Below are positions 1-59,130 of a DNA stretch of 64,000 nt, one piece after another (within the stretch, counting starts at the first letter, position 1; every line of letters starts with the position of its first letter). The stretch covers positions 386,711-450,710 of the forward strand of contig CAVTGA010000001.1 in assembly GCA_963734185.1 (NCBI GenBank), in the 5' to 3' direction. Under the pieces are notes generated by a model. The model saw only the letters and a list, made by a program, of their open reading frames with translations, searched no databases and was not told where the DNA came from. A program made the translations under genes and the position numbers. The DNA comes from an uncultured Alphaproteobacteria bacterium. Lineage in GTDB: Bacteria > Pseudomonadota > Alphaproteobacteria > Rhizobiales > Xanthobacteraceae.

Positions 1-318
1 GCCAAGTACGTGCGCGGCTCGAACAACATCGGTTATCGCGAACGCATCAAGGTGATGAAGCTGCTGTGGGATGCGATCGGCACCGAGTTCGGCGGCCGCC
101 ACGAGCTCTACGAGATGAACTATGCCGGCAATCACGAGGACATCCGCATCCAGTGCATGTGGAACGCGCGCGGATCGGGCGCGCTCGACCGGATGATCGG
201 GCTCGCCGAGCAGTGCATGGCCGACTACGATGAGAACGGCTGGACCTCGCCGACGTGGCTCAATCCTGATGACGTCGCCTACCAGGGTGCGACGGCCAAG
301 CCGCGCGCGGCGGAGTGA
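1..318 (+). CDS. hpaB: 4-hydroxyphenylacetate 3-monooxygenase oxygenase component, C-terminal fragment (5' end lies outside the window)
   Basis: Frame is open from base 1. The C-terminal sequence ...[42 protein letters not shown]... is typical of HpaB-family two-component flavin monooxygenases, and a flavin reductase gene follows. Confidence 0.7.
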
Positions 319-357
319 AATCATTCCCTTCCCGAAGCGGAGGAACAAGGACAGCGC

Positions 358-912
358 ATGAGCTGGATCGACCAACGGCCCGACGACGCCATGGCCGGCG
401 CGTTCGAGGCTTACGCACCCGAACCTCTCGTCACGGTCGAGCCGGCGCAGTTCCGCGAGGCGATGAGCCATCTCGGCGCGGCGGTGCACCTGGTGACGAC
501 CGACGGGCCGGGTGGGCGGGCCGGATTGACCGCGACCGCGGTCTGCTCGGTTTCCGACCAGCCGGCGACCCTGCTGGTCTGCGTCAACCGCCGCAGTCAG
601 CTCATGCCGGTGCTGCATGACAACCAGGTGCTGTGCATCAATACGCTCGGCGCCGATGCCGGCACGCTCGCCGACCTGTTCGCCGGCCGCACCGGCTCCT
701 CGATGGACGAGCGCTTCGCCGCTGCGAGCTGGACCAGGCTGACGACCGGAGCGCCGGTGCTGACCAACGCGCTGGTCTCTTTCGACTGCCGCGTGATCGA
801 GACCAAGGCGGTCGCGACCCACAACGTGCTCATCGCCGGCGTCGTCGCGGTGCGCCTGGGCGAGCCCGGCACCGCGCTGGTCTACCACGACCGGGCCTAC
901 AAGCAGGTGTGA
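358..912 (+). CDS. hpaC: flavin reductase, 4-HPA monooxygenase reductase component
   Basis: 184 aa with the flavin reductase-like fold motifs (…HLVTTDGPGGRAGLTATAVCSVSDQPATLLVCVNRRS…). It sits immediately downstream of hpaB, and an RBS-like AGGAACAAGGA lies upstream. Confidence 0.75.
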   Translation: MSWIDQRPDDAMAGAFEAYAPEPLVTVEPAQFREAMSHLGAAVHLVTTDGPGGRAGLTATAVCSVSDQPATLLVCVNRRSQLMPVLHDNQVLCINTLGADAGTLADLFAGRTGSSMDERFAAASWTRLTTGAPVLTNALVSFDCRVIETKAVATHNVLIAGVVAVRLGEPGTALVYHDRAYKQV

Positions 913-916
913 GCCG

Positions 917-1088
917 CTAGTGTCCCGATTCCGAAGTTCGCCTCATCGTGCAGCACCCTCGGGTACGAACTTCGGAATCGAAGGACACTAGCAACTTATT
1001 GATTCTAGTGTGGCTTAGGTTCAGAAGTCCGCAATCCGGGTTCGCCGCGAGTATGTTTGCGGACTTCTGAACCGCCACACTAGTGGCC
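917..1088. repeat. two adjacent palindromic REP-like elements (ctagtg…cactag hairpins) in the hpaC-araC intergenic region
   Basis: ctagtgtcccgattccgaagttcg…cgaacttcggaatcgaaggacactag and ctagtgtggcttaggttcagaagtccgcaa…ttgcggacttctgaaccgccacactag are both long near-perfect inverted repeats. Confidence 0.6.
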
Positions 1089-1120
1089 TGCGAAACCCCG
1101 GGATAGCGCCGCTACGGCAC

Positions 1121-2053
1121 ATGTTCTCCGGCGCGCGTCCGGCCTATCCTCAAGACGCCATGCCGCCCGCGACCGCCCTGCCGCTGTTCCACCTCTACGG
1201 CGATCCGCCGGACGAGCAGGCGTTCGACTTCATCCACGTCGAGAGCATTCCGTCGCGCTCCTCGCTGCACGAATGGACGATCCGCGCGCACCGCCACCGC
1301 AACCTGTTCCAGATTTTGCTGGTCGAGGCCGGCGGCGGCGACATGACCTACGAGGCGTCCACCATCGCCTTCGCGGCGCCCTGCGCGATCCTGGTGCCGC
1401 CGACGGTGGCGCACGGCTTTCGCTTCAGGCCCGACGCGACGCAAGGCTGGGTCGTCACCTTCACCGAAGACGTCGCCAACGTGCTCGGCGAGCGCAGCGG
1501 CGAGGCGCTGGCGCGCCTCAAGGCGCTGGCGGCCGATCCGGTGATCCCGTTCGGCGCCGCGACCGAGACCCGGCGACTTGCGGCGCTGTGCGCGGACCTC
1601 GCCGAGGAGCACGCGCTCGCGCGCGAAGGCTATCGGCTCGCCATGCGCGGGCTGTTGGCGCTGATCGCGATCGAGGTGGCGCGCCTTGCGGCGAGCCGCG
1701 CGCGCACCGGCGCGGTGACCCTGACGCGCGCCGATCCGACGGTCGAGGCGCTGCGGCGACTGGTCGAGGAGAATTTCCGCAACGAACGCACTATCGGCTT
1801 CTACGCCGAGAAGCTCGTCATGACCGCCGACCGGCTCAACGATCACGTCAAGCGCGCGACCGGCATCACGGTCGGCCACCTGTTGCGCCAGCGCGTGCTC
1901 ACCGAAGCCAAGCGCCAGCTCGTGTTCACTAACCTGCCGATCCACGAGATCGCCTACGACCTCGCGTTCTTCGACCCATCGCACTTTGCCCGTTTCTTCC
2001 GCAAGCAGACCGGCACCACGCCGCACGAGTTCCGCGCCGGGCGGGGCGGGTGA
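1121..2053 (+). CDS. AraC-family transcriptional regulator (HpaA-like, cupin N-domain plus AraC HTH)
   Basis: 310-aa ORF whose C-terminal sequence …IGFYAEKLVMTADRLNDHVKRATGITVGHLLRQRVLTEAKRQLVFTNLPIHEIAYDLAFFDPSHFARFFRKQTGTTPHEF is a canonical AraC HTH. The alternative start at 1160 (MPPATA) is also possible. Confidence 0.75.
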   Translation: MFSGARPAYPQDAMPPATALPLFHLYGDPPDEQAFDFIHVESIPSRSSLHEWTIRAHRHRNLFQILLVEAGGGDMTYEASTIAFAAPCAILVPPTVAHGFRFRPDATQGWVVTFTEDVANVLGERSGEALARLKALAADPVIPFGAATETRRLAALCADLAEEHALAREGYRLAMRGLLALIAIEVARLAASRARTGAVTLTRADPTVEALRRLVEENFRNERTIGFYAEKLVMTADRLNDHVKRATGITVGHLLRQRVLTEAKRQLVFTNLPIHEIAYDLAFFDPSHFARFFRKQTGTTPHEFRAGRGG

Positions 2054-3783: not shown

Positions 3784-4167
3784 TCAGGTCTTCAACTCAG
3801 CCAACACCGCGGCCGTCTCCTTGAAGGCGTGGTTGGCCGCCGGCACGCCGCAATAGATCGCCTGCTGCAGGATGATCTCCTTGACGTCATCGGCGGTAAA
3901 GCCGCCCTCGGTCAGCGCGGCGCGCACGTGCAGGCGGAACTCGTCCCACGAGCCGAGGGCGAGCAGGGTGCCGATCACCAGCACGCGGCGCGTGCGCTCG
4001 TCGTAGTGCGGGCGCGACCACACCTCACTCCAGGCGTAGCGGGTGATGAGGTCCTGGAACTCGGCGTTGAAGGCGGTCTTGCCGGCGTTCGCCTTGTCGA
4101 CCCAGGGCGCGCCCAGCACCTTGCGGCGTCGCGCCATGCCGGCGTCGTAGCGTTGCTTGTCGTCCAT
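3784..4167 (-). CDS. pcaC: 4-carboxymuconolactone decarboxylase
   Basis: 127 aa with the CMD/AhpD-like motif (…ETAAVLAELKT at the C-terminus, HYDERTRRVLVIGTLLALG). It lies in a pcaB-pcaD-pcaC array. Confidence 0.75.
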   Translation of the reverse strand: MDDKQRYDAGMARRRKVLGAPWVDKANAGKTAFNAEFQDLITRYAWSEVWSRPHYDERTRRVLVIGTLLALGSWDEFRLHVRAALTEGGFTADDVKEIILQQAIYCGVPAANHAFKETAAVLAELKT

Positions 4168-4195
4168 GGGCTTCGTCCTCGCGCGGGCGCCGGTT

Positions 4196-4975
4196 TCACT
4201 TCAGCAACAGGAATCCCAGCACCTGGTTGGCATACTCGTCCGGCTGCTCGACGTTGGAGATGTGCGCGGCGTCGAGCACGGTTATCAGCGCGCCGGGAAT
4301 GCGGCTGCGGATCGCTTCGGCGGCCTCCACGTTGGTCGCCGGGTCTTGGCGTCCGGCGATGACCAGGGTGGGCGCCGTGATGCGCGGCAGCAGGTCGCGA
4401 TGGTCCATGGCGGCGATCGCCTCGCAGCAACCGATATAGCCTTGCGCCGGCGTCGCGAGGAACTGCTGGCTCATGGTCGCGATCGTTCGCGGCTCGCGTT
4501 CGCGGAACTCCTTGGTGAACCAGCGCTCCATGGTCGGACCGACCAGCGCGCCGAGACCCTTCTCGCGCACCAGCTTGATGCGGTCGAACCACGGCGTTGT
4601 GTCGGCGAAGTGGGCGGTGGTGTTGGACAGGATCAGCTTGTTGATGCGCTCCGGCGCATTGGCGCCGAGCCACATGCCGACCATGCCCCCCATGGACAGG
4701 CCGCACCAGTTGATCCTGTCGATCCTGAGCGCGTCGAGCACGGCGAGCACGTCGCGCCCGAGCATCTCCATCGAATAGGGCCCCGGCGGCGCGTCCGACT
4801 GGCCGTGGCCGCGGCGGTCGTAGCGCACCAGGCGGAAGTGTTCGGTGAACCGCTGCACTTGGCGGTCCCACATCCGCAGGTCAGCGCCGAGTGAGTTCGA
4901 CAGCATCAGCACCGGCCTATTGTCCGGGCCTTCGACTTCGACATTGATGGAGGCGCCGTTCGACTGGATCTTCAT
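4196..4975 (-). CDS. pcaD: 3-oxoadipate enol-lactonase (alpha/beta hydrolase)
   Basis: 259-aa alpha/beta hydrolase with GLSMGG nucleophile-elbow motif. It lies between pcaB and pcaC. Confidence 0.75.
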   Translation of the reverse strand: MKIQSNGASINVEVEGPDNRPVLMLSNSLGADLRMWDRQVQRFTEHFRLVRYDRRGHGQSDAPPGPYSMEMLGRDVLAVLDALRIDRINWCGLSMGGMVGMWLGANAPERINKLILSNTTAHFADTTPWFDRIKLVREKGLGALVGPTMERWFTKEFREREPRTIATMSQQFLATPAQGYIGCCEAIAAMDHRDLLPRITAPTLVIAGRQDPATNVEAAEAIRSRIPGALITVLDAAHISNVEQPDEYANQVLGFLLLK

Positions 4976-4985
4976 CCGGGTTTCC

Positions 4986-6365
4986 TCATGTTTGCGTTTT
5001 TGGCCGCGCGTACGCGAGCAGGCGGTCGATGAATTGCTGCGCGACGCCCTGGTAGGCGAGGGGATCGAACAGGCGCGCGATCTCGGCTTGGGTCAGTTGC
5101 GCGGTGACGCGCGGATCCTCGTGCAGCACGGCTTCGAGCCCGCGGCGCTCGGCGGCGGCCGTCTTCGAGGCCTCCTCCACGATGTGATGCGCCTCGAGCC
5201 GGCCGATCTTGCGGCCGAGCGCGATCATCACCGCTTCGGCCATGATCAGCCCGCCGGTCGCGTCGAGATTGGCGCGCATGCGTTGCTCGTCGACCTCGAG
5301 CCCTTCGGCGATGTCGACGATCGCGGCCAGCGCGCCGGAGGTCGCGAGCAACAGCGCCGGCATGGTCGACCATTCGGCCTGCCAGCCGCCGAGCGCACGC
5401 TCGTGCTCCTGCACCAGCCCCGCCAGGATGGTGGCGGCAAGGTTCGGCGCCATGACGGCGGCCGCGAGCGCGACGCTCGAAGCCACCGGGTTGCGCTTGT
5501 GCGGCATGGTCGAGGAGCCGCCGCGGCCGGCTGCGGCCGGCTCGAACGCTTCGCCGGTGTCGGTCTGCATCAGCAGCGACACGTCGCGCGCGATCTTGCC
5601 GCAGCTGCCGGCAAGGATCGCGAGCGCGGCGGCGACCTCGGCCACGCGGTCGTGATGACTGTGCCAGGGGGCGTCGGGCAGCGGCAGCTTGAGTTCCGCG
5701 GCGAGCTTTTCGGAGACGATGAGCCCGTCCTGGCCGAGCGCGGCGAGCGTCCCGGCCGCGCCGCCGAACTGCAGCACCAGCGCCTCGGCGCGCAGGCGCG
5801 CGAGGCGCGCGCGTGAACGGGACAGCGCTCCGGCATAGCCCGCAAGCTTCAGCCCGAACGGAACGGGAAGCGCGTGCTGCAGCCAGGTGCGGCCGACCGC
5901 AGGGGTGTTGCGATGCTTCTCCGCAAGCTTGGCGAAGCCCGCAACGGCGCGAGCGAGATCGGCGTCGAGCGCCTCGAGCGCGGCACGCAATTCGAGCATG
6001 AGCGCCGTATCGATGATGTCCTGGCTGGTCGCACCCCAGTGGACGAAGCCGGCGGCAGCCTTGTCGCCGGCCGTTTCGTTCTTGGCGACCTCGGCGGTCA
6101 GCATCTTCACCATCGGAATGGTCACGACGCCGGAGGACACGGCCGCTTCGCCGAGTTTTGCGAGATCGAAGCGGTCCGCATCGCAGGCCGCTTCGATCGG
6201 CCCGACCGCGCTCTGCGGGATCACACCGGCGGAGCCTTGCGCGCGCGCGAGCGCGGCTTCCACGTCCAGCATGCGCTGCAGCCGCGCGCGGTCGTTGACG
6301 ATCGCGCGCATGACGCTGCTCGCGAACAGCGGGCCGAGCAGGGAGGACGGCGGCGGGTCGGTCAT
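4986..6365 (-). CDS. pcaB: 3-carboxy-cis,cis-muconate cycloisomerase
   Basis: 459-aa fumarate lyase superfamily protein (…GSSTMPHKRNPV… signature). It is the first gene of the pcaBDC operon. Confidence 0.8.
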   Translation of the reverse strand: MTDPPPSSLLGPLFASSVMRAIVNDRARLQRMLDVEAALARAQGSAGVIPQSAVGPIEAACDADRFDLAKLGEAAVSSGVVTIPMVKMLTAEVAKNETAGDKAAAGFVHWGATSQDIIDTALMLELRAALEALDADLARAVAGFAKLAEKHRNTPAVGRTWLQHALPVPFGLKLAGYAGALSRSRARLARLRAEALVLQFGGAAGTLAALGQDGLIVSEKLAAELKLPLPDAPWHSHHDRVAEVAAALAILAGSCGKIARDVSLLMQTDTGEAFEPAAAGRGGSSTMPHKRNPVASSVALAAAVMAPNLAATILAGLVQEHERALGGWQAEWSTMPALLLATSGALAAIVDIAEGLEVDEQRMRANLDATGGLIMAEAVMIALGRKIGRLEAHHIVEEASKTAAAERRGLEAVLHEDPRVTAQLTQAEIARLFDPLAYQGVAQQFIDRLLAYARPKTQT

Positions 6366-6469
6366 GGAAGGAGTTTACGGGCGAATTGACGTGCGCAACA
6401 TATCACGTCGCGCGACGTCATCTGATATTCTTGGGTCACGGCCAAGCGAAAAACGCGAAGGGTGCCCCC

Positions 6470-7813
6470 GTGCTGCGCGACATCCATGACCTGCCGATTT
6501 CGACTGCGTCGGCCGCGGCCGCCGCGGCCTTCGATCGTACCTTGCTCGCCTATCTCAAGTATCGCGCCGACGTGCCGGTCCATCTGGCGACGACGCTTGC
6601 GGCGGACGGCGACTTCGGCCTGGCCCACTGCCTGAAGGGCTACGTCGCACTGCTGTCCTACAAGCAGGCCAATGTGCCGGTCGCGGTCGCAGCGGCGGGC
6701 ACGGCGCGCCGGCTGAGCGCGAATGCGACGGCGCGCGAGCGCGCGCATGTCGACGCGCTCGATGCCTGGATCGGCGGTGACCTCGACCGCGCGCTTGGCG
6801 TCTGGGAACAGATCCTGGAACTGCACCCGCGCGACGTGCTGGCGTTCCGCCTGGCGCACTTCAACAATTTCTGGCTCGGACGGCCGGCCGACATGCGCGT
6901 TTCGGTCGAGCGCGTGCTGCCGCAGTGGAGCCGCTCTCTTGCGGGATACGGCACCGTGCTGTCGTGCCGCTGCTTCGCGCACGAAGAGTGCGGCGACTAC
7001 GCCACGGCCGAGCCGTCGGGGCGCGCGGCGATCGAGATCGACCCGGGGGACGTCTGGGGCACGCATGCGGTCGCCCACATCATGGAGATGCAGGGCCGTC
7101 ACGCCGAAGGCATCGCCTGGCTGGAAGAGCTGGAGCGCCACTGGGCAGGGGGCAACAATCTGCTGCATCATTTGTGGTGGCACCGCGCCCTGTTCCACCT
7201 GGAGCGCGGCGAGTTCGACGCGGTGCTCGATCTCTATGACCGGCGCTTCCGCGACCTCGGCAGCCCGCTGACGCAGGCGCAGCCCGATCTCTACATCGAC
7301 GTGCAGAACGCCGCCTCGATGCTGTTCCGGCTCGAGCGGCGCGGGATCGACGTCGGCGAGCGCTGGCACGAGATCGCCGACAAGGCGGAAACGCGCATCG
7401 GCGATTGCCTGTCGGCCTTCACCTTGCCGCATTGGATGATGGCGCTCGCGGCGACCGGGCGCGGCGACGCGGCCGAACGCATGCTCGCCGCGATGCGCGC
7501 GTTCGGCAGCGCCGATACGACGGTCGCGCGCATCGTCGGACGGGTGGCGGTGCCGGTGACGGAGGCGGTGCTGGCGCATGGCCGCGGCGACCATGGGCGC
7601 GCCGTCGATCTGATGCGGCCGGTGCTCGACCGGATGGCAAGCCTGGGCGGCAGCCACGCGCAACAGGACGTGCTGGAGCAGCTGTTCCTCGATTCCGCGG
7701 TCAAGGCGGACCGCCGCGAGGACATCCGCCTCATCCTGGCACGGGTCGCGACGCGGCGCGATCCGGCCGGCCTCACCGGATACGCCGAGGGGGCCCGGCA
7801 ACTCGCGCATTGA
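6470..7813 (+). CDS. tetratricopeptide-repeat protein (TTC38-like family)
   Basis: Long helical-repeat protein with W/L-rich repeats (WLEELERHWAGGNNLLHHLWWHRALFHLERGEF…). A GTG at 6470 with a GAAGGG RBS is preferred because it leaves a divergent promoter gap next to pcaB. An ATG at 6386 is the alternative start. Confidence 0.55.
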   Translation: MLRDIHDLPISTASAAAAAAFDRTLLAYLKYRADVPVHLATTLAADGDFGLAHCLKGYVALLSYKQANVPVAVAAAGTARRLSANATARERAHVDALDAWIGGDLDRALGVWEQILELHPRDVLAFRLAHFNNFWLGRPADMRVSVERVLPQWSRSLAGYGTVLSCRCFAHEECGDYATAEPSGRAAIEIDPGDVWGTHAVAHIMEMQGRHAEGIAWLEELERHWAGGNNLLHHLWWHRALFHLERGEFDAVLDLYDRRFRDLGSPLTQAQPDLYIDVQNAASMLFRLERRGIDVGERWHEIADKAETRIGDCLSAFTLPHWMMALAATGRGDAAERMLAAMRAFGSADTTVARIVGRVAVPVTEAVLAHGRGDHGRAVDLMRPVLDRMASLGGSHAQQDVLEQLFLDSAVKADRREDIRLILARVATRRDPAGLTGYAEGARQLAH

Positions 7814-7863
7814 CGAGCGTCAGGCGCACGCGCCTTATCGGGACGGCTTGAAGGAGACGTGCA

Positions 7864-8316
7864 ATGGCGATGACCATGACCGGCGAGGTCCAGCTCGCCG
7901 CGCCGCGCGCAACGGTGTGGCAGAAGCTCAATGACCCCGCGGTGCTCAAGGCCTGCATCCCGGGCTGCGAGCAGCTCGACAAGACCTCCGAGACGGAGTT
8001 CCAGGCGGTCGCCGTGACCAAGATCGGGCCGGTGAAGGCACGCTGGAAAGGCAAGGTTCGGCTCTCCGACATCGACCCGCCCAACGGCTACCGGATCTCG
8101 GGCGAAGGCGAGGGCGGCGTTGCAGGCTTCGCCAAGGGCGGAGCGGACGTGAAGCTGACCGACAAGGATGGCGGCACCTTGCTCGGCTACAACGTCGAAG
8201 CACAGATCGGCGGCAAGCTCGCGCAACTCGGCCAGCGCCTGATCAACGGCGCCGCCAAGAAGATGGCCGACGAGTTCTTCGGCAATTTCGCCAAGGCGGT
8301 GACGGGAGGTGGTTGA
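7864..8316 (+). CDS. coxG: SRPBCC-family carbon monoxide dehydrogenase subunit G
   Basis: 150 aa. The CoxG-family sequence …TGEVQLAAPRATVWQKLNDPAVLKACIPGCEQL…IGGKLAQLGQRLINGAAKKMADEFF is present. Confidence 0.75.
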   Translation: MAMTMTGEVQLAAPRATVWQKLNDPAVLKACIPGCEQLDKTSETEFQAVAVTKIGPVKARWKGKVRLSDIDPPNGYRISGEGEGGVAGFAKGGADVKLTDKDGGTLLGYNVEAQIGGKLAQLGQRLINGAAKKMADEFFGNFAKAVTGGG

Positions 8317-8319
8317 CAG

Positions 8320-8916
8320 CTAACCTTCGATGGCTTCGGCAAGCTGGTCCTTCACCCAACCATTGAGGCTCTTACCTTCGCGTTCTGCCGCTGCCGCAAT
8401 CGCTCGATGCAGTGCCGGATCAAGCCGCACCACGAACTTGCCGGACAATGGCTTCTCGGGCATTTCACCGCGCTCGCGGCAGAATTCGAGATAATCATCG
8501 ATCGAGTCCGCAAGCGCCTTCTTGAGCTCGTCAACTGATCGACCTTCGAAAGTGATGACGTCACGGAGGCCGACGACGCGGCCGTGAAAGACATCTGCAT
8601 CTTCGTCATAGGCGAAGGTGCCGAGATAACCTTTGTAGTCGAGTGTGTTCACAGGTTGACTCCTGCTTCCTTTAGGAAATCGCGCAAAGCTTCCAACCGC
8701 GCCTTTGACAAGTTCGGGCCGCGGATGCGGTTTGTGAAAAACCGCGCGCCGACCGCTCAGTGCAAAGCGCACGCGCGAACCGCGACCCTCCGATATTTCC
8801 GCGCCGAGCGCCTGCAACAATCCAAGGACTTCACGCCATCGAATGTCGGCCCGCGTTGGTCGTTCGTAGACGGCTTCGAGAGTTTTTCTGCGCCGGGAGC
8901 CAATTTGGTCAGTCAC
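8320..8916 (-). CDS. in-frame HicA-like toxin fused to a HicB-like antitoxin (type II TA)
   Basis: The N-terminal ~85 aa carry HicA motifs (EGRGSRVRF…HKPHPRPELVKGAV). The C-terminal ~110 aa are clearly HicB/RHH-like (YKGYLGTFAYDEDADVFHGRVVGLRDVITFEGRSVDELKKALADSIDDYLEFCRERGEMPEKP…). The frame has no stop between the two parts. Confidence 0.6.
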   Translation of the reverse strand: MTDQIGSRRRKTLEAVYERPTRADIRWREVLGLLQALGAEISEGRGSRVRFALSGRRAVFHKPHPRPELVKGAVGSFARFPKGSRSQPVNTLDYKGYLGTFAYDEDADVFHGRVVGLRDVITFEGRSVDELKKALADSIDDYLEFCRERGEMPEKPLSGKFVVRLDPALHRAIAAAAEREGKSLNGWVKDQLAEAIEG

Positions 8917-9165
8917 TGGTCCCTCGTAGTATCAAAGGTTGATATCAGAGCGTTTTCCGCTTTTCAATGACTGCCCGGCACGCTTGGTCTTGCGATAATC
9001 GCGGCTCGGTCCCTTGACCCGCCCTATCTCCCGGGTTCAGAGTTATTCCGGTTCCAAACAGCGATTTCTGGCAGAAAACGCTACGATTAAGCCTGCAATC
9101 CGGCCGGAGCCGGTGTTCCGGCAGCAAAATGAGGGCCTCCGGCCCCGCTTTCGAGGAGGAGCGTC

Positions 9166-9642
9166 ATGCCCGCGGTCTCTATGGCGGTGAACGGCAAGCC
9201 CGTCACCGGCGACGTCGACGCGCGCACCCTGCTGGTCCAATTCCTGCGCGAGACGCTGCGTCTCACCGGCACCCATGTCGGATGCGACACCTCGCAATGC
9301 GGCGCCTGCGTGGTCCACGTGAACGGCAAGGCGGTCAAGGCCTGCACGGTGTTCGCCTGGCAGGTCGACGGCGCCAACATCACCACCATCGAGGGCCTCG
9401 CCAATGGAAACACGCTGCATCCCATGCAGGAGGCGTTCCGCGAGCATCACGGCCTGCAGTGCGGCTTCTGCACGCCGGGCATGATCATGACCGCGGTCGA
9501 CATGGTCAACCGCAAGGGCAACACGCTCGACGAGCGCACCATCCGCGACGAGCTCGAGGGCAACATCTGCCGCTGCACGGGCTACCACAACATCGTCAAG
9601 GCGATCGCGGCCGGCGCGCAAGCCATGGGCAAAGCCGGTTGA
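9166..9642 (+). CDS. coxS: (2Fe-2S)-binding small subunit of a CODH/XDH-family molybdoenzyme
   Basis: Two [2Fe-2S] motifs are present ([11 protein letters not shown]… and [10 protein letters not shown]…CRCTGY). A strong GAGGAGG RBS lies upstream. Confidence 0.85.
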
Positions 9643-9705
9643 TCCGACAAGGCCGCCGGTGAGAGCGGTCGCACAATTCCCCTACATCCGGCTGGAGGAG
9701 ACGCC

Positions 9706-12075
<2,370 letters not shown>

Positions 12076-12077
12076 GG

Positions 12078-12185
12078 CCCTCGTCCTGAGGAGCCGCGCG
12101 TAGCGCGGCGTCTCGAAGGACGGGAGCAAGCGGCCACCCTTCGAGACGCGCCCTTTCAGGGCGCTCCTCAGGGTGAGGCGCAGGG
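12078..12185. repeat. nested palindromic REP-like element
   Basis: cgtctcgaagg…ccttcgagacg forms an inverted repeat, nested inside cctgaggagc…gcgctcctcaggg arms. Confidence 0.5.
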
Positions 12186-12213
12186 AGAGCAGACAAGTTT
12201 AGGGAGAGCCACG

Positions 12214-13059
12214 ATGTACAACTTCACTTTCCACCGTCCGGGCGGCCTGCGCCAGGCGCAGAACATGCTGGGCAAGCTGGAGGAGGCGAAAATCCTCGCC
12301 GGCGGCCAGTCCTTGATCCCGACCATGAAGCTGCGGCTGGCCAGCCCCGCCAACATCGTCGACCTGTCGAAGATCGAAGGCCTTGCCGGCATCGAGCTGA
12401 AAGGCCGCTCGCTCGTCATCGGCGCGATGACGCGCCACGCGGAGGTGGCCAGCTCCGACGCGGTCAAGGGCAGCATCCCGGCGCTCGCGAGCCTCGCGAA
12501 TGTGATCGGCGATCCCGCGGTGCGCCACCAGGGCACGATCGGCGGCTCGGTTGCCAACAACGATCCGAACGCCGACTACCCGGCGGCCTGCCTCGGGCTC
12601 GGCGCCACCATTGTCACCACCAAACGGCGCATCGCGTCGGACGACTTCTTCAAGGGCCTGTTCGAGACCGCGCTCGAGCCGGACGAGATCGTCACCAAGG
12701 TGATGTTCCCGATCCCCAAGAAGGCCGGCTACATGAAGTTCCGCAACCAGGCCTCGCGTTTCGCGCTAGTCGGCGTTTTCGTGTCGAAGCGCGGCAGCGA
12801 GATCCGCGTCGCCGTCACCGGCGCGGGCTCGAGCGGCGTGTTCCGCGTCAAGGCGTTCGAGGAGGCGCTGAAGAAGCGCTTCGCCGCCAAGTCGCTGGAG
12901 GGCCTGACCGTGCCGGCGACCGGCATGAACGCCGACATCCACGGCAGCGCCGAATACCGCGCGCATCTCGTCGCCGTCATGGCGCGGCGCGCGGTGGCGG
13001 CGGCGAACGAGGCGCCATCCGCTGACGCGGATGAGGGAGGCGTGGTCGGCAACGGGTAG
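12214..13059 (+). CDS. coxM: FAD-binding medium subunit of the CODH-like enzyme
   Basis: 281-aa FAD-binding PCMH-type domain (ILAGGQSLIPTMKLRLASP…). Confidence 0.85.
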   Translation: MYNFTFHRPGGLRQAQNMLGKLEEAKILAGGQSLIPTMKLRLASPANIVDLSKIEGLAGIELKGRSLVIGAMTRHAEVASSDAVKGSIPALASLANVIGDPAVRHQGTIGGSVANNDPNADYPAACLGLGATIVTTKRRIASDDFFKGLFETALEPDEIVTKVMFPIPKKAGYMKFRNQASRFALVGVFVSKRGSEIRVAVTGAGSSGVFRVKAFEEALKKRFAAKSLEGLTVPATGMNADIHGSAEYRAHLVAVMARRAVAAANEAPSADADEGGVVGNG

Positions 13060-13061
13060 CA

Positions 13062-13172
13062 CTAGAGCACGATGACTTTTCTTCGAATCGTCATCGCGCT
13101 CTAAGTTATTCGTGGAGCATGATCTTTTCCGAAAACCGCTGCGCACTTTTCGGGATCATGCTCTAGCATCGA
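13062..13172. repeat. two adjacent palindromic REP elements; the second is a gagcatgatc…gatcatgctc type
   Basis: ctagagcacgatgac…gtcatcgcgctctaag and gagcatgatcttttccgaaaaccgctgcgcacttttcgggatcatgctc are both inverted repeats. The same family recurs at 34843-34925. Confidence 0.6.
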
Positions 13173-13221
13173 GCCACGTCGGCCCTCGCGGATTGGCGGC
13201 AAAGGCATTAGATAGCTGGCC

Positions 13222-14160
<939 letters not shown>

Positions 14161-14166
14161 CCGGCC

Positions 14167-15378
<1,212 letters not shown>

Positions 15379-15393
15379 CCTATATGTGCGTCA

Positions 15394-15735
15394 TTGGAGG
15401 ATCCGATGGACACGCTCGCGCGCGATGAAGACATCCTCAAAGCCGCCGAGGACTGGCGCAAGGCCGGGCGCGGCGTGGCGCTCGCGACCGTGGTCGAGAC
15501 CTGGGGCTCGGCGCCGCGGCCGGTCGGCTCCAACCTGGTGATCGACGACCAGGGCAATTTCCTCGGCTCGGTGTCGGGCGGTTGCGTCGAAGGAGCGGTC
15601 GTCACCGAGGCGCTCGACGTGATCGAGAGCGGCAAGCCGAAGACGTTGGAATTCGGCGTCGCCGACGAGGCCGCCTGGAAGGTCGGGCTCTCCTGCGGCG
15701 GCACCATCCGGGTGTTCGTCGAGAAAGTGGAGTAG
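15394..15735 (+). CDS. XdhC/CoxI-family protein (short, N-domain type)
   Basis: 113 aa containing the XdhC_CoxI motif (VALATVVETWGSAPRPVGSNLVIDDQGNFLGSVSGGCVE). Confidence 0.7.
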   Translation: MEDPMDTLARDEDILKAAEDWRKAGRGVALATVVETWGSAPRPVGSNLVIDDQGNFLGSVSGGCVEGAVVTEALDVIESGKPKTLEFGVADEAAWKVGLSCGGTIRVFVEKVE

Positions 15736-15759
15736 CGCCGTGAACGTGCCGCATGCTCC

Positions 15760-16165
15760 GCTTACCTCCCCCCTTGTGGGGGAGGCCGGCGCGCGAAGCG
15801 CGGCGGGAGGGGGACTTTCGTCAGCACGGAAGTTGACCCCCTCCCTAACCCTCCCCCACAAGGCAGGGCTATCGCATATGACGCCGTTGCTTTGGTTGTC
15901 GCGCCGAAAGCGCCACAGTACCTCCCCCCTTGTGGGGGAGGTCGACCGCCGGAGCCCGCAGGGCGACGGCGGGCGGGAGGGGGTCCGCTTTTCTTTGTCT
16001 GAGAAGGTTTTTCGTGCTTGTGGCGAGTCCCCCTCCGGCCTCGCTTCGCGAGGCCACCTCCCCCACAAGGGGGGAGGTACTGTGGCGCTTTCAGTGCCTA
16101 TTTCGTCACAGACACGGCGCTGCGTGTCATATGCGATAGCCCTCCCCCACAAGGGGGGAGGGGAC
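15760..16165. mobile_element. MITE-like nested palindromic insertion built from CCTCCCCC(TTGTG/CACAA)GGGGGAGG 20-mers
   Basis: At least five copies of the 20-bp palindrome occur in both orientations. They are arranged as nested long inverted repeats: gaaagcgccacagtacctcccccc…/…ggggggaggtactgtggcgctttc, and gctatcgcatatgacg…/…cgtgtcatatgcgatagc. The 151-aa ORF called across this region is not coding. Confidence 0.6.
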
Positions 16166-16191
16166 GCGCCGGCGTTTGCGGGGCGACCCTT

Positions 16192-16884
16192 GTGAAACTC
16201 GACATCCTCAAAGCCCTCAACGCCGAACGCGCGGCGCGGCGCGCGACGGTCGTCGTAACCGATCAGGACAGCGGCGCGCAGCGGCTGGTCACGCAAGACG
16301 GCATCGCCGGCGATCCCCTGAAGGACGTGCTCGAAGCCCATCTGCGCTCGGGCAAGAGCGGGATGGAAGAGACCGCGCAGGGCAAGGTCTTCCTCACCGT
16401 GCACGTGCCGCCGACGCGACTCGTCATCACCGGAGCCGTGCACATCAGCCAGGCGCTGGCGCCGATCGCCAGATTGCTCGGCTACGACGTCACCATCGTC
16501 GACCCGCGCACCGCGTTCGCCAGCATCGAGCGCTTTCCCGACGTGAAGGTGATCGCCGAATGGCCGGACACGGCGCTCCCCGCCCTCGGCATCGACCGCT
16601 ACACGGCGTTCGTCGCGCTCACCCACGATCCCAAGATCGACGATCCCGCGCTCACTCATGCGCTGGCGCGCGACTGCTTTTATATCGGCGCGCTCGGCTC
16701 GAAGAAGACGCACGGCCGCCGCCTCGAGCGCTTGAAGGAGCAAGGCGTGAGCGAAGCGCAGCTCGCGCGCATCCACGCGCCGATCGGGCTTGCCATCGGC
16801 GCGGTGTCGCCGGCCGAGATCGCACTCGCCATCATGGGCGAGATCACGGCGCGCCTGCGGCTTACAGCGGATGGCAAGCGATGA
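16192..16884 (+). CDS. XdhC-family protein (Rossmann-like C-domain type)
   Basis: XdhC_C-like sequence …RLVITGAVHISQALAPIARLLGYDVTIVDPR…ALTHDPKIDDPAL…. A GTG start at 16192 is inferred because the upstream part of the ORF is repeat DNA. Confidence 0.6.
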   Translation: MKLDILKALNAERAARRATVVVTDQDSGAQRLVTQDGIAGDPLKDVLEAHLRSGKSGMEETAQGKVFLTVHVPPTRLVITGAVHISQALAPIARLLGYDVTIVDPRTAFASIERFPDVKVIAEWPDTALPALGIDRYTAFVALTHDPKIDDPALTHALARDCFYIGALGSKKTHGRRLERLKEQGVSEAQLARIHAPIGLAIGAVSPAEIALAIMGEITARLRLTADGKR

Positions 16885-18500
16885 AGTTCGGCGCAGTCCC
16901 GCCGGCCGAAGCCGAAGGCGGCATCGCGGTGCATTCGATCCGCCAGGGCAACCTCGTGCTCAAGAAGGGCACGGTGATCGGGAAGGCGGAGATTGCCGCG
17001 CTCGCCGCCGCGGGCATCGGCGAGGTCGTGGTGGCGCGGCTCGAACCGGGCGACGTGTCGGAGGACCGGGCGGCGGCCGAGATCGCCGCTGCGGTCGCGG
17101 GCGAGGGCGTGCACGTCGAGCGCGCTTTCACGGGCCGCGCCAATCTGTTCGCGGAAGCTCCCGGCGTGTTGGTGGTCGACAGGCAAGCGATCGACCGCCT
17201 CAACGAGGTCGACCCCGACATCACTTTTGCGACCCTGCCGGCCTTCGCGCCGGTCGTCGCCGGCAAGATGATCGCGACGGTGAAGATCATTCCGTTTGCG
17301 GTGTCGGGCACGGCGCGCGACCGGGCGCTCGCGGTCGCGCAGGCGGCCAAGCCCATCATGCGCGTTGCCCCTTATGCGCGAGCCAAGGTCGGCATCATCT
17401 CGACCGTGCTGCCGGGACTCGCCGACAAGGTGATCGACAAGACCCTGCGCGTGACCGCGGAGCGGCTCGCGCCCGCAGGGGCGCGTATCGTCGCCGAGCG
17501 GCGCGTACCGCATGAGGCGCAAGCGCTTGCCCGCGCGCTCGACGAGGTGCTAGGCGCCGGCGCCGAGCTCGTCATCGTATTCGGCGCCTCGGCCATCGCC
17601 GACAAGCGCGACGTGATCCCGGCCGCGGTCGAGGCGATCGGCGGACGCATCGAGCATTTCGGCATGCCGGTCGATCCCGGCAATCTTCTCCTCATCGCCG
17701 ACGCGCATGGCCATCCGGTGCTGGGAGCGCCCGGCTGCGCGCGCTCGCCGAAGGAAAACGGCTTCGACTGGGTGCTGATGCGCCTGCTGGCCGGACTGCC
17801 GGTCAAGCGCACCGATATCACCGGCATGGGGGTCGGCGGGCTGTTGATGGAGATCGTGACGCGGCCGCAGCCGCGCGCGGAGCCGGCTCCCGAAGCCGGC
17901 CGCAAGGTCGCCGCTTTGGTGCTTGCTGCCGGCCGCTCGACCCGTATGGGCGGACCGAACAAGCTGCTCGAGCAGGTCGGCGGCAAGCCGCTGGTGCGCA
18001 TTGCGGTCGAGCAGGCACTCGCCTCGCGCGCCAGTCCCGTGATCGTGGTCACCGGTCATCAGCGCGAGCGGGTCGAGCAGGCGCTCGCTGGGCTGCCGCT
18101 GCAATTCGTGCACAATCCGGACTTTGCAGAAGGGCTTTCGACCTCGCTCAGGACCGGCATCGCGGCCGTGCCGGCCGCGGCGGACGCGGCAATCGTCTGC
18201 CTCGGCGATATGCCGCACGTGACCGGCAAGCTGATCGACCGGCTGATCGCGGCCTTCGACCCGGCGCGCGGCGCTTTGGTCGTGGTGCCGACGATCGCGG
18301 GCAAGCGCGGCAACCCGGTGGTGTGGTCGCGCCGCTTCTTCGGTGACCTGATGGCGGTCGACGGCGACGTCGGCGCGCGTCATCTGATCGCGGGCTACGC
18401 GGAAGCGGTGACCGAAGTGGCGCTGGAGGACGCCGGAGCGCTGACCGACGTCGATACGCCGGAGGCGTTGCGCGCCGTCAAGGCGGCGGTCGAAGCCTGA
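16881..18500 (+). CDS. fusion of a molybdopterin-binding (MoeA/CinA-like) domain and a MobA-like nucleotidyltransferase (MocA-like); predicted Mo-cofactor maturation protein
   Basis: The ATG overlaps the preceding stop (ATGA). The N-terminal half is MoCF-biosynthesis-like. The C-terminal half (…VAALVLAAGRSTRMGGPNKLLE…) is a MobA/MocA-type cytidylyltransferase. Confidence 0.7.
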   Translation: MKFGAVPPAEAEGGIAVHSIRQGNLVLKKGTVIGKAEIAALAAAGIGEVVVARLEPGDVSEDRAAAEIAAAVAGEGVHVERAFTGRANLFAEAPGVLVVDRQAIDRLNEVDPDITFATLPAFAPVVAGKMIATVKIIPFAVSGTARDRALAVAQAAKPIMRVAPYARAKVGIISTVLPGLADKVIDKTLRVTAERLAPAGARIVAERRVPHEAQALARALDEVLGAGAELVIVFGASAIADKRDVIPAAVEAIGGRIEHFGMPVDPGNLLLIADAHGHPVLGAPGCARSPKENGFDWVLMRLLAGLPVKRTDITGMGVGGLLMEIVTRPQPRAEPAPEAGRKVAALVLAAGRSTRMGGPNKLLEQVGGKPLVRIAVEQALASRASPVIVVTGHQRERVEQALAGLPLQFVHNPDFAEGLSTSLRTGIAAVPAAADAAIVCLGDMPHVTGKLIDRLIAAFDPARGALVVVPTIAGKRGNPVVWSRRFFGDLMAVDGDVGARHLIAGYAEAVTEVALEDAGALTDVDTPEALRAVKAAVEA

Positions 18501-18579
18501 CGTCGCCGCGTTCTTCCGTTAAATCAAATTAAGTGTTTGCCCTGATAATCCCTCCCCGGGGAATTATCGGGGAAAGAGG

Positions 18580-18954
18580 ATGGTCTTGCGTCATGGCGTC
18601 GGCACCGCCTTCATCGTTGCCTTTCTGATCGGATCCAGCGCTTGCGCCGATGCGGCCGGCGCGCTCGCGGTCGGCCGCTGCGGGGCCTACGGCTACGCGT
18701 TCGACTCAGGGACCATGCAGGAAGCGCAGACGCGCGCGGCGAGCGAGTGCAAGGGCGCCGGCTGCCGCATCGTCGCGACGGTGCAGCGGCAATGCGCCGC
18801 GCTCGCGGTCGATGCCCGCAACGCCTGCGGGCCCCACGGCTGGGCCACCGCGCGCACGCTCGGCCGGGCGCAGAACGTCGCGGCGCAGCAATGCTACCGC
18901 TATGGCGGTCGCGACTGCGTCATCCGCGCCTGGCTTTGCGACGGCCGGGGGTAG
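18580..18954 (+). CDS. DUF4189-like secreted Cys-containing protein
   Basis: Signal peptide followed by two GAYG/GWA-type repeats with paired cysteines (GRCGAYGYAFD…CKGAGC…CGPHGWATA…). Confidence 0.55.
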   Translation: MVLRHGVGTAFIVAFLIGSSACADAAGALAVGRCGAYGYAFDSGTMQEAQTRAASECKGAGCRIVATVQRQCAALAVDARNACGPHGWATARTLGRAQNVAAQQCYRYGGRDCVIRAWLCDGRG

Positions 18955-19091: not shown

Positions 19092-21215
19092 ATGAGACTG
19101 AGACAGACCTTGTATGCGACGGTCGCGGCGGTCGGCATCGCGGCATTCGTGGCCCCCGTCAACGCGCAACAGCCCGCAGCGGTTACGATCGATGCTGACG
19201 ACATCGGCGGCGCGGTCACCGGTCCGAACGGCCCGGAAGCCGGCGTCTGGGTGATCGCCGAGACCAAGGACCTCTCCACCAACTACATCAAAAGCGTGGT
19301 GACCGACGATCAGGGCCGCTACCTGATCCCCGACCTGCCGGCGGGCGCGACCTACACGGTGTGGGCGCGCGGCTACGGCCTGGTCGATTCCGCCAAGGTG
19401 GCGAGCCGCCCGGGTCAGATCGTCAACCTTACCGCCGTGCCGGCGCCGACGCCGAAGGCCGCCGCCGAGATCTATCCGGCGATCTACTGGTATTCGATGC
19501 TCAAGGTGCCGGGAAAGCACGAATTCCCGCTCGGCAACGCCAAGAGCCAGCCCGAGTGGCTCAACGTGGTCAAGACCAACGGCTGCTACGGCTGTCACGC
19601 GCTCGGCAACAAGGCGACGCGCACGATCCCGCAGCAGTTCGCCGACATGAGCTCCGAGGACGCCTGGGCGCGGCGCATCCTGTCGGGCCAGGCCATGAAC
19701 AACATGGCGACCGCGATCGGCCGCCTCGACGCGCAGCGCGCGCTCAAGCTTTACGCCGACTGGACCGACCGCGTCGCGGCGGGCGAGCTGCCGGCTGCGA
19801 AGCCGCCGCGGCCGCAGGGCAAGGAGCGCAACGTCGTCGTCACGCAGTGGGACTTTTCCGATCCCAAGCACTACCTGCACGACATCACCGCGACCGACAA
19901 GCGCAAGCCGACGCTCAACGCCAACGGCCTGATCTACGGCGCGGTCGAGAACTCGACCGACCTGATCCCGGTGCTCGACCCGGTCAATCACAAGGCGACG
20001 TCGTTCAAGATGCCGGTGCGCGATCCCAACACGCCCTCGCACAAGAATGATGCGATGTCGGCTTCGCCCTACTGGGGCGATGAGGTGCTCTGGGATGGCC
20101 AGAGCAGCACGCACAACCCGATGTACGACCAGAACGGCCGGGTGTGGTGGACGTCGCGCGTCGGCGTCGCGGACAATCCGGCCTTCTGCAAGCAGGGCTC
20201 GGACCACCCGTCGGCCAAGGTATTCCCGATGGCGTCGTCGACCCGGCACCTGTCGATGCTCGATCCCAAGACCGGCAAGATCACGCTGATCCGTACCTGC
20301 TACCAGACGCATCATCTGATCTTCGCCGAGGATGCCAACAACACGCTTTGGATGAGCGCGGGCGGACCCGGCAGCGGCGCATTGGGCTGGCTCGACACCA
20401 GGAAATTCGACGAGACCGGCGACGAGGCCAAGTCGCAGGGGTGGACGCCGATCGTCATCGACACCAACGGCAACGGAAAGCGTGACGAATGGGTCGAGCC
20501 GAACCAGCCGGTCGATCCGACCAAGGACAAGCGCGTCGTGGGCGCGCTCTATGGCATCGGCGTCAATCCGCAGGACGGCACGATCTGGGGCTCGATCCTG
20601 ACCTTCCCGGGCTACATCATCCGCGTGAATCCGGGACCGAACCCGTCCGAGACGGCGCTGTCGGAGATCTACGAGCCGCCGGCGCCGGGCTACGGCCCGC
20701 GCGGCTTCGACATCGACCGCAACGGCGTCGCCTGGGTGCCGCTGTCGAGCGGCCACATGGCAAGCTTCGACCGCAGGAAGTGCAAGGGGCCACTCAACGG
20801 CCCGGCCTCGGCCACCGGGCGGCATTGCCCGGAGGGTTGGACGCTCTACGACTTCCCCGGCCCGAAGCACGCCGACGCGCCGGACGTCGGCAGCGCGGAA
20901 GCGAGCTACTATACCTGGGTCGATCAGTTCGACACGTTCGGGCTCGGGCGGGACGTGCCGTGGGCCACCGGCAACGCCAACGAGTCGCTGATGGCGCTGG
21001 TCGACGGCAAGTGGCTCAACTTCGTGGTTCCCTATCCGCTCGGCTTCTATGCCAAGTGGATGGACGGCCGCATCGACGATCCCAACGCCGGCTGGAAGGG
21101 CAAGGGCGTGTGGGCCACCTACGGCACCCGCGTGCCGTTCCATCTCGAGACCGGCAAGGGGACGCGGCCGAAGGTGGTGAAGTTCCAGCTGCGGCCCGAT
21201 CCGCTGGCGAAGTAG
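19092..21215 (+). CDS. secreted 707-aa protein with an N-terminal carboxypeptidase-regulatory-like domain and a single haem-c motif (CYGCH)
   Basis: Signal peptide (…AAFVAPVNAQQ), a CarboxypepD_reg-like β-sandwich (GVWVIAETKDLSTNYIKSVVTDDQGRYLIPDLPAGATYTVWARGYG), NGCYGCHALGNK, then a W/G/P-rich region that looks like a β-propeller. Confidence 0.6.
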   Translation: MRLRQTLYATVAAVGIAAFVAPVNAQQPAAVTIDADDIGGAVTGPNGPEAGVWVIAETKDLSTNYIKSVVTDDQGRYLIPDLPAGATYTVWARGYGLVDSAKVASRPGQIVNLTAVPAPTPKAAAEIYPAIYWYSMLKVPGKHEFPLGNAKSQPEWLNVVKTNGCYGCHALGNKATRTIPQQFADMSSEDAWARRILSGQAMNNMATAIGRLDAQRALKLYADWTDRVAAGELPAAKPPRPQGKERNVVVTQWDFSDPKHYLHDITATDKRKPTLNANGLIYGAVENSTDLIPVLDPVNHKATSFKMPVRDPNTPSHKNDAMSASPYWGDEVLWDGQSSTHNPMYDQNGRVWWTSRVGVADNPAFCKQGSDHPSAKVFPMASSTRHLSMLDPKTGKITLIRTCYQTHHLIFAEDANNTLWMSAGGPGSGALGWLDTRKFDETGDEAKSQGWTPIVIDTNGNGKRDEWVEPNQPVDPTKDKRVVGALYGIGVNPQDGTIWGSILTFPGYIIRVNPGPNPSETALSEIYEPPAPGYGPRGFDIDRNGVAWVPLSSGHMASFDRRKCKGPLNGPASATGRHCPEGWTLYDFPGPKHADAPDVGSAEASYYTWVDQFDTFGLGRDVPWATGNANESLMALVDGKWLNFVVPYPLGFYAKWMDGRIDDPNAGWKGKGVWATYGTRVPFHLETGKGTRPKVVKFQLRPDPLAK

Positions 21216-58719: not shown

Positions 58720-59130
58720 GTGGGACAGTCCGACAAGCTGATGCCGATTGCGCTCATCGTGGAGGATGATCCCGATCTGCGCGAGCTCGCCGCCGCGTTG
58801 CTGGAGGAAACCGAGCTGAAAGTGATGGAGTGCGCCACCGCCGAAGAGGCGCTGGTGACGATGTGCACGCACGGCAACGAGGTCGCGTTGATCTTCGCCG
58901 ACATCCGCCTGCCCGGCCTGATCGACGGGATCGATCTCGCCCGCAAGGCGCGGGCGCTGTGGCCGCGGGTGCGGATCATCATCACGTCGGGCAATCCCGG
59001 GAATCGGGTCGATTCGCTCCCGGAAAATGCCATCTACATGCAGAAGCCGTGGCGCGCGCTCGAAGTGCTGATGGAAGCCGAACGTGCCGCCGCCACCGCG
59101 CAGGCCGATCAAGGAACTGTGCGGGCTTAG
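58720..59130 (+). CDS. single-domain response regulator (CheY-like receiver)
   Basis: GTG start with an AGGAGGG RBS. Receiver motifs IALIVEDDPDLRE…FADIRLPG…ITSG are present. Confidence 0.65.
   Translation: MGQSDKLMPIALIVEDDPDLRELAAALLEETELKVMECATAEEALVTMCTHGNEVALIFADIRLPGLIDGIDLARKARALWPRVRIIITSGNPGNRVDSLPENAIYMQKPWRALEVLMEAERAAATAQADQGTVRA

Follow-up and report, generated by a model that had tools for sequence, protein, structure and literature searches.

A complete form II CO dehydrogenase-like gene cluster in an uncultured member of the Xanthobacteraceae, and its candidate substrates

We analyzed a 64,000-nucleotide stretch (the window) of contig CAVTGA010000001.1, from an uncultured member of the Xanthobacteraceae, which carries a cluster of genes for a molybdoenzyme related to aerobic carbon monoxide (CO) dehydrogenase at positions 7864–18500. 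The whole window is high in GC (~67%), and genes were called from a listing of open reading frames (ORFs), third-position GC, and scans for Pfam and NCBIfam domains. The cluster lies on the plus strand and comprises coxG, coxS, coxL, coxM, coxD, coxE, a split XdhC pair, and a gene for a fusion of a molybdopterin (MPT)-binding domain with a MocA domain (Table 1). An earlier note on this DNA had described a complete set of coxG, S, L, M, D, E, two XdhC-type genes, and a MoeA-like/MocA fusion, with the structural genes in the order S-L-M and the loop AYRGAGR in CoxL; all of these were present, the loop at CoxL residues 369–375. The cluster is an ordinary, complete member of the form II CO dehydrogenase-like group, a known and widespread family, and not a new system.

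Table 1. Features of the cox cluster and its upstream neighbors. Positions are those of the window, except in the last row, where they are those of the individual loci.
Feature	Position	Strand	Evidence or content
hpaB 3' end, hpaC (flavin reductase), HpaA-like AraC regulator	10–2053	+	Pfam and NCBIfam
pcaC, pcaD, pcaB (protocatechuate branch, beta-ketoadipate pathway)	3784–6365	-	Transcribed away from the cluster
TPR-repeat protein gene, 475 aa	6386–7813	+	Between pcaB and coxG; ends 50 bp before coxG
coxG, 150-aa SRPBCC protein without C-terminal membrane helix	7864–8316	+	Pfam COXG, E=1.4e-37, full model
HicA-toxin/HicB-antitoxin-like ORF, 198 aa	8320–8916	-	Pfam HicA_toxin, residues 27–77; HicB, residues 142–191
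coxS, small subunit, two [2Fe-2S] clusters	9166–9642	+	Pfam Fer2 and Fer2_2
coxL, 789-aa molybdopterin-binding large subunit	9706–12075	+	Pfam Ald_Xan_dh_C (hammerhead), MoCoBD_1, MoCoBD_2
TSQNPH motif, conserved Gln near Mo=O (Gln224)	10369–10386	+	Aligned with form I TFQAPH/TTQAPH
AYRGAGR active-site loop, CoxL residues 369–375	10810–10830	+	Alignments to 8UEM, 1N5W, 1FFU, 1T3Q
GCGEAG motif, conserved catalytic Glu (Glu742)	11920–11937	+	Aligned with form I GVGESP/GIGESA and Qor GMGESA
coxM, FAD-binding medium subunit	12214–13059	+	Pfam FAD_binding_5, E=1e-44; weak CO_deh_flav_C match
coxD, MoxR-type AAA+ ATPase (maturation)	13222–14160	+	Pfam AAA_5 and AAA
coxE, VWA-domain maturation protein	14167–15378	+	Pfam VWA_CoxE, E=4e-76
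XdhC N-terminal-domain-only protein, 113 aa, first half of split XdhC	15394–15735	+	Pfam XdhC_CoxI, E=8e-27
Repeat-filled spacer, 450 bp, between the two XdhC genes	15736–16185	none	REP/MITE-like palindromic repeats
XdhC Rossmann-domain protein, second half of split XdhC	~16192–16884	+	Pfam XdhC_C, E=1e-44
Fusion of MPT-binding MoCF_biosynth/MoeA-like and MocA-type cytidylyltransferase, 528 aa	16914–18500	+	MoCF_biosynth, residues 169–279; NTP_transf_3, residues 334–495
Roseobacter coxG/S/L/M loci	L084 8873–13236; L085 9479–13151; L086 8888–13237; L087 8492–12154; L089 7890–12163

The encoded proteins have the features of the molybdenum hydroxylase (xanthine oxidase) family, namely a large subunit with the hammerhead and two molybdenum cofactor-binding domains, a small subunit with eight Cys for two [2Fe-2S] clusters, and a FAD_binding_5 subunit. 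All 8 Cys ligands of CoxS are present (positions 40, 45, 48, 60, 99, 102, 135, and 137). CoxS is predicted to hold the two [2Fe-2S] clusters, CoxM flavin adenine dinucleotide (FAD), and CoxL the molybdenum cofactor, with the catalytic Gln and Glu intact and the loop bearing the Cu-binding Cys replaced.

Among the maturation genes, CoxD scored 271 bits against the NCBIfam model MadB_ATPase, below the model cut-off, and the literature search returned nothing relevant on MadB/MadC (the NCBIfam names matched by CoxD/CoxE) or on the S. meliloti locus tags. Each of the two XdhC genes codes for one half of a single, split XdhC chaperone; in Azospirillum B510, the orthologue of the XdhC_CoxI half is likewise annotated as a separate XdhC gene of 330 bp. 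The frame of the XdhC_C half was checked against the sequence, and the gene probably starts at a GTG at 16192. In the fusion protein, the MobA-like/MocA-type NTP_transf_3 domain was matched at E=4e-40, and the best NCBIfam match was matur_MocA_YgfJ (157 bits; cut-off, 186). A scan of 6300–18700 for promoters and terminators found sites no more numerous than in shuffled sequences, and operon boundaries could not be drawn from it.

We next consider the active site of CoxL. Aligned with the form I CO dehydrogenases of M. smegmatis (8UEM), O. carboxidovorans (1N5W), and H. pseudoflava (1FFU), the AYRGAGR loop stands opposite AYRCSFR/AYACSFR, and it has no Cu-binding Cys. It is also two residues shorter than the form I (V)AYRCSFR(V). 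CoxL scored 649 bits against TIGR02416 (CO_dehy_Mo_lg, aerobic CO dehydrogenase; cut-off, 991) and 590 bits against NF040766 (cut-off, 950), and every other NCBIfam match of CoxL was likewise under its cut-off. The closest solved structure is a form I enzyme (606 bits to M. smegmatis CoxL, 8UEM); CoxL is 39–43% identical to the form I CoxL proteins of known structure and 37% identical to quinoline 2-oxidoreductase (Qor, 1T3Q). At 43% identity to a solved CO dehydrogenase, the predicted fold of CoxL is not in question. In neighbor-joining trees, the form I sequences 8UEM, 1N5W, 1FFU, and P0243 formed a clade with 100% bootstrap support, and the window CoxL fell outside it. Because it lacks the Cu-ligating Cys, scores below the TIGR02416 cut-off, and lies outside the form I clade, the predicted enzyme is not a form I CO dehydrogenase. 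This agrees with the earlier note, which had named tight clustering of the large subunit with confirmed CO-oxidizing form I enzymes as grounds for abandoning its claim; no such clustering was seen in the neighbor-joining trees.

The trees (100 bootstraps) took in four PDB anchors and, besides the query, 135 full-length sequences representing clusters at 50% identity. To these, a further tree added annotated orthologues that a tblastn search of plasmid and megaplasmid records had turned up. Of the Bradyrhizobium/Mesorhizobium/Sinorhizobium group, which supplies the published form II references (WP_011083168.1, WP_010909926.1, and WP_010970339.1), the sampling covered a single close sequence, the chromosomal CoxL of S. 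meliloti; 6-hydroxypseudooxynicotine dehydrogenase (Kdh, 7DQX) and 4ZOH were compared by match score only. The window CoxL grouped at 100% bootstrap with those of S. meliloti, Azospirillum B510, Ralstonia solanacearum, Ruegeria, Pseudosulfitobacter, and two cluster representatives. Its identity was 67% to the chromosomal CoxL of S. meliloti, 64.5% to that of Azospirillum, 63.7% to that of Ralstonia, and 57–59% to those of the roseobacters. Among plasmid-borne homologues, CoxL identity falls sharply from 50% (a level that includes the archaeon Halococcus) to 43%, which suggests a discrete subfamily. Across the organisms of the clade, the segments that form the active site hardly vary, and the clade signature DAHGRDH stands where form I has (T/S)xFARDY.

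The clade crosses the domain boundary, since a Halococcus plasmid carries the cluster. On this plasmid, of Halococcus dombrowskii (L088, 7732–15773), the CoxL is 50% identical and the gene order is SRPBCC-S-L-M-MoxR-VWA-XdhC; a gene for a pyrroloquinoline quinone (PQQ)-binding-like beta-propeller lies ~3 kb upstream.

Form II, also termed "putative" or the BMS clade, is defined by the AYRGAGR loop together with the order coxSLM, a definition from King & Weber 2007 as cited in PMC13240472 and PMC13203968. The earlier note had relied on the same two marks. Both are found in the window, and the order coxS-coxL-coxM held in all of the 80 related loci described below and in the annotated orthologues. 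The loop proved less discriminating. Across the 136 nearest 50%-identity cluster representatives, we counted 48 AYRGAGR, 30 PYRGAGR, and many near-variants, with a single AYRCSFR. AYRGAGR is the default in most of these representatives, and the motif alone is therefore not diagnostic of the clade.

The window proteins were mapped onto 80 related loci (L001–L080) from species-representative genomes. The nearest of these loci place the source organism as Xanthobacteraceae/Pseudolabrys-like. The core set of G-S-L-M-D-E-XdhC-XdhC-MocA was recovered in 57–80 of the 80, depending on the gene: coxG beside coxS in 68, coxD in 71, coxE in 68, the XdhC_CoxI half in 63, the XdhC_C half in 60, and the MocA fusion in 57. 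The core set recurs in Azospirillum, Ralstonia, and even Halococcus. CoxG varies in one respect. The Ralstonia orthologue has 213 aa and ends in a transmembrane helix, whereas the window CoxG (150 aa) has none, its maximum 19-residue hydropathy being 0.45 versus 2.17 in the membrane-anchored Ralstonia protein.

With form II, the cluster shares the AYRGAGR loop, the order coxS-coxL-coxM, and a sister-like similarity to form I; the accessory set of D, E, split XdhC, and MocA fusion is also present in the Azospirillum orthologue, and the Ralstonia orthologue has D, E, and coxG too. Nothing essential sets it apart from form II. The peculiarities of the window are a hicAB-like insertion, a repeat-filled XdhC spacer, an anchor-less CoxG, and pcaBDC and hpaBC as neighbors. 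Form I resembles it in the three-subunit architecture, the domain content, the Gln and Glu residues, and the accessory genes coxD, coxE, and coxG, but has the gene order M-S-L, the Cu-ligand loop, and a separate, fully supported clade. Qor and Kdh belong to the same family and have the same subunit plan, and Qor has a related Cu-less loop (AYRGVGF). However, Qor did not group with the window clade with any bootstrap support, Kdh is a still weaker match (432 bits versus 491 for Qor), and the genes of both sit in dedicated heterocycle-degradation operons.

The best overall explanation, to which we give a probability of about 70%, is that the product of the cluster is a molybdenum hydroxylase with three subunits, a xanthine oxidase family enzyme of the form II CO dehydrogenase-like clade, for which CO would not be the physiological substrate. 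Isolates with form II only often show no CO consumption, and CO is not regarded as the physiological substrate (PMC13203968, PMC6794299). The literature from 2019 to June 2026 calls the role of form II unresolved (PMC13203968, PMC13240472, PMC6794299), as the earlier note had said of its substrate. The MocA fusion would make the cofactor in its cytosine dinucleotide form, and the split XdhC pair and the CoxD (AAA+)/CoxE (VWA) pair would insert or sulfurate it. Hydroxylation would then take place at Mo, with water, on a C-H carbon of a small organic molecule, and electrons would pass from Mo through the two [2Fe-2S] clusters and FAD to quinone. For form I, CoxG has a membrane helix, extracts and shuttles quinone, and also associates with other family members (PMC12202499). 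The window CoxG, an SRPBCC protein, may likewise handle quinone.

Several points weigh against parts of this explanation. The trees are neighbor-joining only, and their deep branches are poorly resolved (bootstrap 0–60%). The quinone-shuttle step is extrapolated, given that the window CoxG is without a membrane helix. The points that concern the substrate are taken up with the aldehyde lead below.

Given that the earlier note placed the cluster among aromatic-catabolism genes (hpa, pca, fcs, dioxygenases) and proposed a role in aromatic or heterocyclic hydroxylation, we examined the neighborhood in the window and in its relatives. The first part of that description stands for the upstream side: hpaBC and pcaBDC are there (Table 1), an FMN (flavin mononucleotide)-reductase-like gene is also among the upstream genes, and NCBIfam scores were 307 bits for pcaD (cut-off, 256), 650 for pcaB (595), and 151 for pcaC (156). 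These are the only aromatic genes within 40 kb. The "fcs" is an AMP-binding enzyme at 59127–60983 and the dioxygenase a small Dioxygenase_C gene at 62098–62691, both more than 40 kb from the cluster and beyond the groESL, RTX, and GGDEF-EAL genes, and no aromatic-catabolism genes lie directly downstream of the cluster. The remaining 45 kb downstream is unrelated (DUF4189, a 707-aa secreted protein, an amidohydrolase, TetR, an ABC-2 transporter, groESL, RTX, GGDEF-EAL, and others). The 707-aa protein (19092–21215, plus strand) has a signal-like N-terminus, judged by eye, and a CXXCH heme-binding motif in NGCYGCHALG; its sole Pfam match is a weak one to CarboxypepD_reg, and it has no homologue in the 80 related loci. 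The TPR gene was found in only 1 of the 80 (L001, 77% identity).

Among the relatives, pcaD and pcaC, on the minus strand, directly precede coxG in divergent orientation in most of ~50 Xanthobacteraceae/Pseudolabrys loci, and copies of lower identity (44–54%) adjoin coxS in Phreatobacter and two other loci. This adjacency was absent in the related loci of Microvirga, Labrys, Chelatococcus, Alsobacter, Bosea, and Azorhizobium, and from the Sinorhizobium, Azospirillum, Ralstonia, and roseobacter members of the same fully supported clade. The flanks of the clade members differ: hemA and dxr in S. meliloti, a TAXI-TRAP transporter in Azospirillum, and a LysR regulator and an MFS transporter in Ralstonia.

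These data bear on the strongest rival explanation, that the enzyme hydroxylates aromatic compounds or N-heterocycles, or oxidizes lignin-derived aldehydes (4-hydroxybenzaldehyde, vanillin, protocatechualdehyde), and so feeds the pcaBDC or hpaBC routes. It is favored by pcaB and pcaD scoring above equivalog cut-offs, by the truncated hpaB, hpaC, and HpaA-like regulator within 8 kb upstream, by the recurrent pcaDC adjacency in the Xanthobacteraceae, and by the activity of the characterized relatives Qor and Kdh on heterocycles. However, the pca association is lost outside that lineage, and the active-site segments are near-identical in organisms without pca neighbors. In addition, the pca genes run on the other strand, with the TPR gene between them and coxG, the cluster is not accompanied by ring-cleavage or heterocycle-pathway genes, and the match to Qor is distant. 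An invariant active site with shifting neighbors points to one common substrate class rather than a lineage-specific aromatic or heterocyclic one. The role that the earlier note had drawn from the neighborhood is accordingly not well supported, and we consider this rival unlikely. The aromatic neighborhood appears to be a lineage-specific accident and poor evidence for an aromatic substrate, a role that has weak support at best.

It is very improbable that the enzyme is a second CO dehydrogenase, of low activity or specific to certain conditions, working without the canonical Mo-S-Cu site: form I is the closest among solved structures, its accessory genes coxD, coxE, and coxG are kept, and the first proposal for form II was that it carries out CO oxidation in carboxydovores (cited in PMC6794299), but the active-site loop has no Cys for Cu, the score is under the NCBIfam CO dehydrogenase cut-off, form II-only isolates often fail to consume CO, and the roseobacter and other neighborhoods are unrelated to CO.

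For the form II molybdenum hydroxylase that we prefer, one neighborhood offers a lead on the substrate. On plasmids of roseobacters (two strains of Ruegeria, Pseudosulfitobacter, Sulfitobacter, and Phaeobacter), coxG-S-L-M comes immediately downstream of pedF (cytochrome c-550) and is oriented the same way (Table 1). Besides pqqABCDE, the islands encode YVTN and ABC components and a methanol/ethanol dehydrogenase that depends on PQQ; within 9–10 kb, their annotation includes no NAD-dependent aldehyde dehydrogenase. The product of a PQQ alcohol dehydrogenase is an aldehyde, and the roseobacter islands need a step that oxidizes it. In the literature searched, no paper connected form II with PQQ/ped islands.

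For all three subunits, the best curated model was the archaeal glyceraldehyde dehydrogenase (NF041018/19/20), with scores and cut-offs of 674/790 bits (alpha, CoxL), 218/350 (beta), and 210/290 (gamma). Identity with that enzyme was rejected because all three subunits miss the equivalog cut-offs. The Sulfolobales glyceraldehyde (aldehyde) oxidoreductase (related structure, 4ZOH) resembles the window enzyme as a Cu-less molybdenum hydroxylase acting on aldehydes; it differs in organism and gene context, and 4ZOH matches the window at 402 bits versus 606 for form I.

Because the active site is near-invariant across the clade and the roseobacter PQQ alcohol dehydrogenase island is the sole functionally coherent neighborhood in it, an aldehyde, oxidized to the acid, is our best guess for the substrate class, which we put forward tentatively. 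The wider proposal, that the whole form II clade consists of respiratory, quinone-coupled aldehyde oxidoreductases, is doubtful. Under it, the enzyme would complete PQQ alcohol oxidation in roseobacters and would convert lignin-derived aromatic aldehydes to protocatechuate-pathway acids in the Xanthobacteraceae, where the cluster and pcaDC would be driven from one divergent control region.

The following observations count against the aldehyde lead. First, only roseobacter plasmids, whose proteins are 55–59% identical to those of the window, show the association with a PQQ island, which may represent one mobile island. Second, the shortfall of all three subunits against the glyceraldehyde dehydrogenase models applies here as well. 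Third, the conserved neighbors in the family of the window are pcaDC and hpaBC, not alcohol dehydrogenases. In addition, a plain aldehyde oxidase leaves unexplained why CoxD and CoxE, builders of the Mo-S-Cu site in Oligotropha, are retained; CoxD takes part in assembling the [CuSMoO2] site of Oligotropha (now Afipia) carboxidovorans (PMC3471820).

The cluster is interrupted by two segments. The gap between coxG and coxS is 849 bp and carries the HicA/HicB-type ORF on the opposite strand. Its region has a local GC of 0.625 versus about 0.68, and no homologue was found in any of the 80 related loci. The ORF is an insertion between coxG and coxS, outside the enzyme system. The HicA and HicB domains share one frame without an intervening stop, and a possible internal GTG could start HicB. 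The spacer between the XdhC genes contains CCTCCCCCACAAGGGGGGAGG in four exact copies, two per strand, nested in 54–55-nt inverted repeats. The window has no other copy of this 21-nt repeat (0 expected), and none of 86 fetched loci contains it. The ORF calls across the spacer (15740–16195, 16018–16884, and 16176–18500) were set aside as mechanical artifacts. The junction of coxM and coxD is an insertion hot spot in the related loci, exceeding 900 bp (up to 6.4 kb) in 31 of 70; the gap in the window is only 162 bp. The sole recurrent insert there, a VOC/glyoxalase-like gene on the opposite strand (13 loci), is absent from the window and was not counted as a part of the system.

Form II coxL is abundant in soil and marine genomes, and its routine annotation as CO dehydrogenase leads to inflated estimates of CO-oxidizing potential (PMC13203968). 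Since the AYRGAGR loop is not clade-specific, form II is better called by phylogeny than by motif. A lineage-specific aromatic neighborhood combined with a clade-invariant active site also means that substrate guesses from the neighborhood of a single genome are unsafe. The comparison across relatives weakens the aromatic hypothesis and puts forward, with low confidence, aldehyde oxidation as an alternative. The substrate of form II is a long-standing question, and the window itself makes it no easier to approach than do hundreds of other genomes. The roseobacter PQQ alcohol dehydrogenase context provides a concrete hypothesis of aldehyde oxidation that is testable in genetically tractable strains. 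If true, the clade-wide aldehyde proposal would give a substrate class to a very widespread enzyme that has long been mis-annotated as CO dehydrogenase.

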